Position numbers and translations under genes: made by a program. The notes under the pieces were generated by a model that searched no databases, had not been told where the DNA came from, and worked only from the letters and a program-made list of their open reading frames with translations. This document shows, one piece after another, positions 58,874-59,767 of a stretch of 64,000 bases of DNA; the stretch's first letter is position 1; each line of letters starts with the position of its first letter. This DNA is from Escherichia coli (GTDB lineage: Bacteria; Pseudomonadota; Gammaproteobacteria; Enterobacterales; Enterobacteriaceae), in assembly GCF_002854065.1 (NCBI RefSeq), contig NZ_CP024147.1, one strand, 5' to 3'.

Positions 58874-58915
58874 ATCTTATTTGCGACGCTAATCAGACGA
58901 TGCATAAAACAGAGA

Positions 58916-59683
58916 GGTAATGACTCCAACTTATTGATAGTGTTTTATGTTCAGATAATGCCCGATGACTTTGTCATGCAGCTCCACCGATTTTGAGAAC
59001 GACAGCGACTTCCGTCCCAGCCGTGCCAGGTGCTGCCTCAGATTCAGGTTATGCCGCTCAATTCGCTGCGTATATCGCTTGCTGATTACGTGCAGCTTTC
59101 CCTTCAGGCGGGATTCATACAGCGGCCAGCCATCCGTCATCCATATCACCACGTCAAAGGGTGACAGCAGGCTCATAAGACGCCCCAGCGTCGCCATAGT
59201 GCGTTCACCGAATACGTGCGCAACAACCGTCTTCCGGAGCCTGTCATACGCGTAAAACAGCCAGCGCTGGCGCGATTTAGCCCCGACGTATCCCCACTGT
59301 TCGTCCATTTCCGCGCAGACGATGACGTCACTGCCCGGCTGTATGCGCGAGGTTACCGACTGCGGCCTGAGTTTTTTAAATGGCGGAAAATCGTGTTGAG
59401 GCCAACGCCCATAATGCGGGCGGTTGCCCGGCATCCAACGCCATTCATGGCCATATCAATGATTTTCTGGTGCGTACCGGGTTGAGAAGCGGTGTAAGTG
59501 AACTGCAGTTGCCATGTTTTACGGCAGTGAGAGCAGAGATAGCGCTGATGTCCGGCAGTGCTTTTGCCGTTACGCACCACCCCGTCAGTAGCTGAACAGG
59601 AGGGACAGCTGATAGAAACAGAAGCCACTGGAGCACCTCAAAAACACCATCATACACTAAATCAGTAAGTTGGCAGCATCACC
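58916..59683 (-). mobile_element. IS1 insertion sequence, 768 bp, copy 3, inverted relative to copies 1 and 2
   Basis: Plus strand reads GGTAATGACTCCAACTTATTGATAGTG...CAGTAAGTTGGCAGCATCACC; insA 59353-59628 (-), insB frame 58931-59434 (-); flanked by 9-bp direct repeat AAACAGAGA (58907-58915 and 59684-59692). Confidence 0.95.
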
Positions 59684-59767
59684 AAACAGAGAAAATATAA
59701 AAGTAATGTATTTTATTCATTCCGTCTGAATATAAAAAACGCGCTCATGACCGCCAAAAGGCGCAAG

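Follow-up and report, generated by a model that had tools for sequence, protein, structure and literature searches.

Structure of the espY2–sgrR locus

The window, by which we mean the whole 64-kb stretch of Escherichia coli DNA analyzed here, carries an IS1 element in the spacer between two convergent genes, espY2 on the left and sgrR on the right. The features of the locus are given below in order of position.

58192–58761, plus strand: espY2, the left neighbor, 189 aa, intact (RefSeq annotation of the identical sequence)
58849–58868: GC-rich hairpin with T-runs on both strands, a likely bidirectional terminator between espY2 and the IS1 (terminator scan of both strands)
58907–58915: left 9-bp target-site duplication, AAACAGAGA
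58916–59683, minus strand: complete IS1, IS1B-like, 768 bp, with the insA-proximal end (IRL) at 59683 and IRR at 58916
58916–58938, plus strand: IRR, 23-bp terminal inverted repeat, GGTAATGACTCCAACTTATTGAT
58931–59434, minus strand: insB frame, encoding the catalytic DDE portion of InsAB' (ORF list, Pfam/NCBIfam profiles)
59353–59628, minus strand: insA, 91 aa, zinc-ribbon and HTH domains (ORF list; PF03811, PF12759, N-terminal part of NF033558)
59371–59377, minus strand: A6C motif (AAAAAAC), the programmed −1 frameshift site at IS1 nt 307–313
59676–59649, minus strand: promoter-like site CTGCCA-16-TATGAT, overlapping IRL and directed into insA
59661–59683, minus strand: IRL, 23-bp terminal inverted repeat, GGTGATGCTGCCAACTTACTGAT
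59684–59692: right 9-bp target-site duplication, AAACAGAGA
59768–61426, minus strand: sgrR, the right neighbor, coding sequence intact, oriented like the transposase genes of the IS1

The product of the left gene is identical to WP_021556407.1. espY2 is a non-LEE type III effector gene that was first named in O157:H7 Sakai (PMC3256949). Its identification in the window is based on the RefSeq annotation of the identical sequence and on the 39% identity of its product to EspY1 over 168 aa; a profile search of EspY2 against NCBIfam and Pfam matched no model. Strains of O145:H28 and O157:H16 have an espY2 gene of the same length, with the same stop codon and without indels, which is intact according to RefSeq. 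An earlier sequence-only reading of this DNA had described a frameshifted effector-like gene with the IS1 immediately downstream. Neither part of this description holds: the gene is the canonical 189-aa espY2, and the IS1 lies 154 bp beyond its annotated stop codon. A strain-specific frameshift is ruled out by the lack of indels relative to four other genomes. Past the stop codon (58759–58761), another frame runs for approximately 30 codons (ADGMTDLREVNLKKLTFPARTRLDCAVID) and ends at a stop at 58832–58834. This frame (window 58700–58834) resembles the preceding repeat-like C-terminus of espY2. If it does reflect a frameshift, the change would be common to all the examined alleles, including those of EHEC.

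The hairpin between espY2 and the IS1 folds with −20.3 kcal/mol (z = −2.05). The insertion placed the IS1 between this hairpin and sgrR, thereby moving the hairpin 777 bp farther from the sgrR stop codon. On the other side, the sgrR stop codon at 59768–59770 and the IS1 end at 59683 are separated by the 84 bp that had been noted earlier. A pattern scan found no terminator in this sgrR–IRL gap, and the fold of the gap is no better than that of shuffled sequence (z = −0.54). The gap does contain a weak stem followed by a T6 run, at about 59730–59760 on the minus strand, which could still terminate sgrR transcription before the IS1. The IS1 points leftward, with its transposase genes sharing the orientation of sgrR. 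In an Rfam scan of 57000–62500, the matches were limited to the TPP riboswitch and SgrS, with none where the IS1 is inserted.

Compared with K-12, the window has an additional 1,011-bp espY2 segment (57986–59773, IS1 excluded), whose point of insertion coincides with the sgrR stop codon and lies upstream of the thiB TPP riboswitch; 1,037 of 5,426 complete genomes contain this segment. The corresponding interval of K-12, between the sgrR stop codon and the riboswitch RNA, is only about 35 nt long. The IS1 is located inside the espY2 segment, 81 bp from its right edge. The region of sgrR and sgrS (59774–61719) shares only 92.6% identity with K-12, compared with 99.7% for the adjacent thiB and 97.0% for leuD; the sgrR–sgrS allele is thus locally divergent and possibly recombined. 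The setA gene, located in K-12 between sgrS/sgrT and leuD, is missing from the window (61494–62359), from the two relatives described below (strains CUWW06 and 100416) and from strain 2018-05-2CC. In the window, sgrS ends at 61720 and leuD starts at 61754. According to the CUWW06 annotation, the window also contains a chromosomal ccdA/ccdB toxin–antitoxin pair after folA (32413–32963), espY1 between djlA and rluA (41075–41755), and a short transposase remnant adjoining espY1 (41829–41958).

Anatomy and coding capacity of the IS1 element

The element at 58916–59683 is 100% reverse-complementary to 17015–17782 and 99% (8 nt different) to 22935–23702. A search with a degenerate inverted-repeat pattern revealed exactly six IS1 terminal repeats in the 64-kb window, corresponding to three elements, whereas shuffled sequence yielded no match. 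Both ends of the sgrR-side element match this pattern with 0 mismatches. The promoter-like site at 59676–59649 is presumably the IS1 promoter in IRL, and insA starts at IS nt 56. A −1 shift at the A6C motif would join insA to insB', and the predicted fusion read in this way from the sequence is a stop-free InsAB' of 232 aa. Its profile scores are 73.9 bits for PF03811, 96.6 bits for PF12759, and 260.7 bits for PF03400 (DDE_Tnp_IS1), all at full length. Against the NCBIfam IS1 equivalog NF033558, it scores 243.8 bits (cut-off 100) over profile positions 1–199 of 199. In CUWW06 and 100416, RefSeq labels the corresponding product "IS1-like element IS1B family transposase" with a programmed frameshift, and copies that are 100% identical bear the IS1B family label in many RefSeq records. 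The features of the IS1 family are all present, namely the length, the terminal repeats, the InsAB' frameshift layout, the transposase domains, the 9-bp target-site duplication, and a presence/absence polymorphism. Judged from its sequence, the sgrR-side element is structurally complete and a member of the IS1 family on each testable feature.

Target-site duplication and the empty site

The 9-mer AAACAGAGA occurs twice in the 64-kb window, each time abutting an IS1 end. The empty site was rebuilt by joining the left flank, one AAACAGAGA, and the right flank into a sequence of 1,209 bp, which was searched in 5,426 complete E. coli genomes. At least 80% of this sequence was covered in 1,037 of the 5,426 genomes, including two with a filled site, leaving about 1,035 without the IS1. 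Among the matches listed, the empty-site genomes align in one uninterrupted piece, while the alignments of two genomes are split by the IS1. In strain 2018-05-2CC (NZ_AP027877.1), whose flanks are 99.8% identical, the 37-nt left flank and the 38-nt right flank enclose exactly one AAACAGAGA. Compared with this empty-site reference, the repeats beside the IS1 constitute a true 9-bp duplication, as the sequence-only reading had claimed. A chance repeat is ruled out, as the 64-kb window has no AAACAGAGA other than those at the IS1 ends and the empty site has a single copy. IS1 favors AT-rich DNA, and the GC content of 29% in the 50 bp on each side of the target, versus 53% for the window, fits this known preference. 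IS1 generates target-site duplications of 8 or 9 bp (PMC12428005).

Distribution of the insertion among E. coli genomes

The filled junction was found in only two of the 5,426 genomes, those of CUWW06 (wastewater, Thailand; NZ_CP182139.1) and 100416 (stool, Gambia; NZ_CM128593.1). The mobility of the element is therefore visible as a polymorphism: these two genomes have a filled site, whereas about 1,035 with the same espY2 locus have an empty one. The flanks of the insertion show 1 mismatch to CUWW06 in 9,694 bp, and about 16 substitutions separate the two strains over 58 kb of the window. The CUWW06 copy is 100% identical to the window IS1, with identical position, orientation, and duplication. 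The 100416 copy is likewise identical in position, orientation, and duplication but carries two private SNPs, one of which is in IRR. Within the terminator hairpin, position 58858 is A in the three IS1-bearing strains and G in other genomes, and position 58867 bears a private change in 100416. A metagenome scan with the exact 40-nt IRL junction returned 0 matches, which is weak evidence of absence, as IS junctions rarely assemble from short reads. The insertion is routine and already known, being annotated in the public genomes of both strains. It cleanly marks a small lineage of E. coli consisting of the window strain, CUWW06, and 100416.

Three IS1 copies of two types in the window

The two other IS1 copies of the window are located in the cai operon. 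The three copies are as follows.

17015–17782, plus strand: copy 1, in caiC, IS1B-like, target-site duplication GCCACCGCG, identical to the sgrR copy, private to the window strain
22935–23702, plus strand: copy 2, in caiT, IS1A type, target-site duplication GGTTCGTTA, private to the window strain
58916–59683, minus strand: copy 3, beside sgrR, IS1B-like, identical to copy 1 and 8 nt from copy 2

Copy 2 differs from K-12 IS1A by 1 synonymous nt and from copies 1 and 3 by 8 nt. CUWW06 and 100416 carry neither the caiC nor the caiT copy; both genes are intact in both strains, and the cai target sites of CUWW06 contain GCCACCGCG and GGTTCGTTA in a single copy each. The caiC and caiT IS1 junctions gave no exact single-piece match in the 5,426 complete genomes. 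The absence of the cai copies from both relatives indicates that they are younger than the sgrR copy. The earliest insertion is thus that of the sgrR copy, in the ancestor shared by the three strains; the two cai copies, which belong to two IS1 types, are later insertions private to the window strain. The sgrR copy may have been the donor of the caiC copy, but the lineage may contain many other IS1B-type copies of identical sequence that could equally have acted as donors.

The carnitine operon is thus interrupted twice, by direct-orientation IS1 copies in caiC and caiT that lie 5.9 kb apart, each with its own 9-bp duplication. The arrangement of this direct pair is that of a Tn9-like composite transposon, and a deletion or Tn9-like movement is its more likely outcome. 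Several unrelated complete E. coli genomes contain independent IS1 insertions elsewhere in caiC and caiT. The cai operon may be a recurrent target of IS1, or strains may tolerate its loss or be selected for it.

Local IS1 density and potential for rearrangement

Copies 1 to 3 together span 42,669 bp, and the gaps to copy 3 are 41,133 bp from copy 1 and 35,213 bp from copy 2. Together with the six terminal repeats, this span confirms the earlier count of three IS1 copies in 43 kb. CUWW06 and 100416 contain at least 40 IS1 pieces each, against a median of about 10–11 per genome in the collection of 5,426. K-12 has six IS1 copies, located hundreds of kb apart (PMC12428005, PMC12065110). The suggestion that the strain is richer in IS1 than K-12 is supported by these counts, as inferred from the two relatives. 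The Poisson probability of three or more copies in 43 kb is about 0.006 for a genome with 40 copies and 0.026 for one with 68. Three copies in 43 kb are therefore a local cluster that is unlikely by chance even in an IS1-rich genome. Two of the three clustered copies are recent insertions into one operon.

When inverted repeats recombine, the outcome is inversion, and when direct repeats do so, it is deletion (PMC8072062). Copy 3, on the minus strand, is inverted relative to the plus-strand copies 1 and 2, as had been observed before, and the accompanying prediction that recombination between them would invert rather than delete the intervening DNA follows this textbook rule correctly (PMC8072062). 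The 768-bp inverted homology could flip 35–41 kb of core chromosome, from fixA to espY2, including folA and lptD. The signature of such an inversion would be swapped, reverse-complemented 9-mers, with TCTCTGTTT as the partner of GCCACCGCG or GGTTCGTTA. In the window, collinearity with CUWW06 and the K-12 gene order are kept, and all three IS1 copies are flanked by their own matching 9-bp duplications. An exchange between copies would produce mismatched duplications; since all of them match, no such exchange has occurred. Accordingly, neither the collinearity with CUWW06 nor the matching of the duplications revealed an inversion or deletion between the copies.

A composite transposon or another IS1-bounded unit, containing either espY2 or the 35–41 kb interval, was considered and rejected. 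Each IS1 has its own duplication, and the interval consists of collinear core chromosome. A unit containing espY2 is further contradicted by the presence of this gene without the IS1 in about 1,035 genomes.

Alternative explanations

The alternative that fares best assigns a function to the insertion. It proposes that read-through from sgrR makes the element a "master" copy, which acted as the donor for caiC, and that the insertion might alter the 3' end of sgrR or give antisense transcription towards espY2. Several features of the locus are compatible with this proposal: the IS1 is co-oriented with sgrR, no terminator was detected by the pattern scan within the 84-bp gap, a strong hairpin lies beyond the IS1 as seen from sgrR, and the newer caiC copy is 100% identical to the sgrR copy. 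In K-12, blocking upstream transcription lowers the transposition of IS1A and IS1E (PMC12428005). However, the weak stem and T6 run right after the sgrR stop codon may end most transcripts before they reach IRL, and other identical IS1B-type copies in this IS1-rich genome could equally have been the donor. The sgrR gene is also weakly expressed and represses its own transcription, which counts against the proposal. As for the antisense effect, the hairpin at 58849–58868 would stop transcripts leaving IRR before espY2. We therefore regard a functional role for this insertion as unlikely.

An assembly artifact, in the form of a collapsed or misplaced IS1 repeat, deserves consideration since multi-copy IS1 elements are a classic cause of misjoins. 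Nevertheless, the same junctions and duplication are present in two independent complete genomes, from Thailand and Gambia, and the 100416 copy contains private SNPs inside the IS1. Furthermore, a misjoin would not yield a perfect 9-bp duplication that matches the empty site. An artifact is thus highly improbable.

The notion of a joint arrival of the IS1 and espY2 on a single mobile unit, with the 9-bp repeats being incidental, draws on the location of the IS1 inside a 1,011-bp segment absent from K-12 and on the ability of IS1 pairs to mobilize intervening genes (PMC12065110), but it is scarcely credible, as the espY2 locus exists without the IS1 in about 1,035 genomes, including EHEC O145:H28 and O157:H16, the island edges at 57986 and 59773 differ from the IS1 ends, and the single IS1 at the locus has its own duplication inside the island. 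The empty-site genomes and the non-coinciding boundaries effectively refute the IS1 as the carrier of the espY2 island.

Proposed origin of the insertion

We conclude, with high confidence, that an intact IS1B-like IS1 transposed into an AT-rich part of the spacer between the convergent espY2 and sgrR genes in the ancestor of a small IS1-rich lineage. For this event, InsAB' would have been produced through −1 ribosomal frameshifting at the A6C motif. InsAB' binds the terminal repeats and cuts the target with a 9-bp stagger, and repair then duplicates the 9 bp. At this locus, the staggered 9-bp cut would have been made at AAACAGAGA, with gap repair duplicating those bases; we infer this transposition chemistry from established IS1 biology. 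Since its insertion, the element has persisted as a marker of the lineage and has provided a 768-bp homology block, inverted relative to the younger caiC and caiT copies. Transcripts of sgrR that pass the weak stem would enter insA in the sense direction, and such read-through may possibly feed the transcription of insAB'. As the element interrupts no coding sequence, it is most simply read as a near-neutral insertion that was retained by descent. We assume that near-neutrality is the most likely state of this insertion, which matters little beyond bookkeeping.

Comparison with known IS1 elements

The geometry of the three copies would allow an inversion like those of Shigella and IS-rich E. 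coli, with inverted 768-bp repeats located 35–41 kb apart and copy 1 being 100% identical to the sgrR-side copy. Four IS families, including IS1, are enriched in Shigella, and 103 of 114 reconstructed inversions fall on Shigella branches (PMC8072062). In contrast to those genomes, the inversion is only potential here, as the window is collinear with CUWW06.

The window allele (copies 1 and 3) is close to, yet distinct from, that of K-12 IS1B/IS1C, with 767 of 768 nt identical, and it differs from IS1A by 8 nt and 2 aa. It resembles K-12 IS1B/IS1C in its length of 768 bp, its identical terminal repeats, and its insA/A6C/insB layout. Eight of the nine differences between IS1B/IS1C and IS1A are present in the window allele, including L81F and S130R of InsAB'. 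The substitution T704A (L217Q of InsAB'), which K-12 IS1B and IS1C carry, is absent from the window allele. The K-12 IS1B/IS1C copies also lie elsewhere in the chromosome than the sgrR-side copy. IS1A and IS1E of K-12, the "consensus" and active type, belong to the same family as the sgrR copy and share its architecture. K-12 IS1A (19796–20563) is located just upstream of rpsT, where the window lineage has espX1 and fimbrial genes (window about 1–1600). Exact copies of the window allele are found on many chromosomes and plasmids.

IS1B and IS1C constitute the "type II" of K-12 and are reported to be nearly immobile, and L81F has been suggested as the cause of this immobility (PMC12428005). In contrast, the window allele evidently moved recently in its lineage, into caiC. 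The presence of an identical copy newly inserted in caiC suggests that an IS1B-like allele without L217Q is mobile in nature. In addition, the position of the sgrR-side copy in tandem behind sgrR fits the reported increase of IS1 transcription and transposition by upstream read-through in K-12 (PMC12428005). These comparisons raise the tentative idea, to which we attach only a small probability, that L217Q or the donor-site context, rather than L81F, is behind the K-12 immobility and that the sgrR-adjacent copy, fed by read-through, could be an active donor. They offer a small lead for IS1 specialists, in that an IS1B-like allele is apparently mobile while the nearly identical K-12 copies are reported to be inactive.
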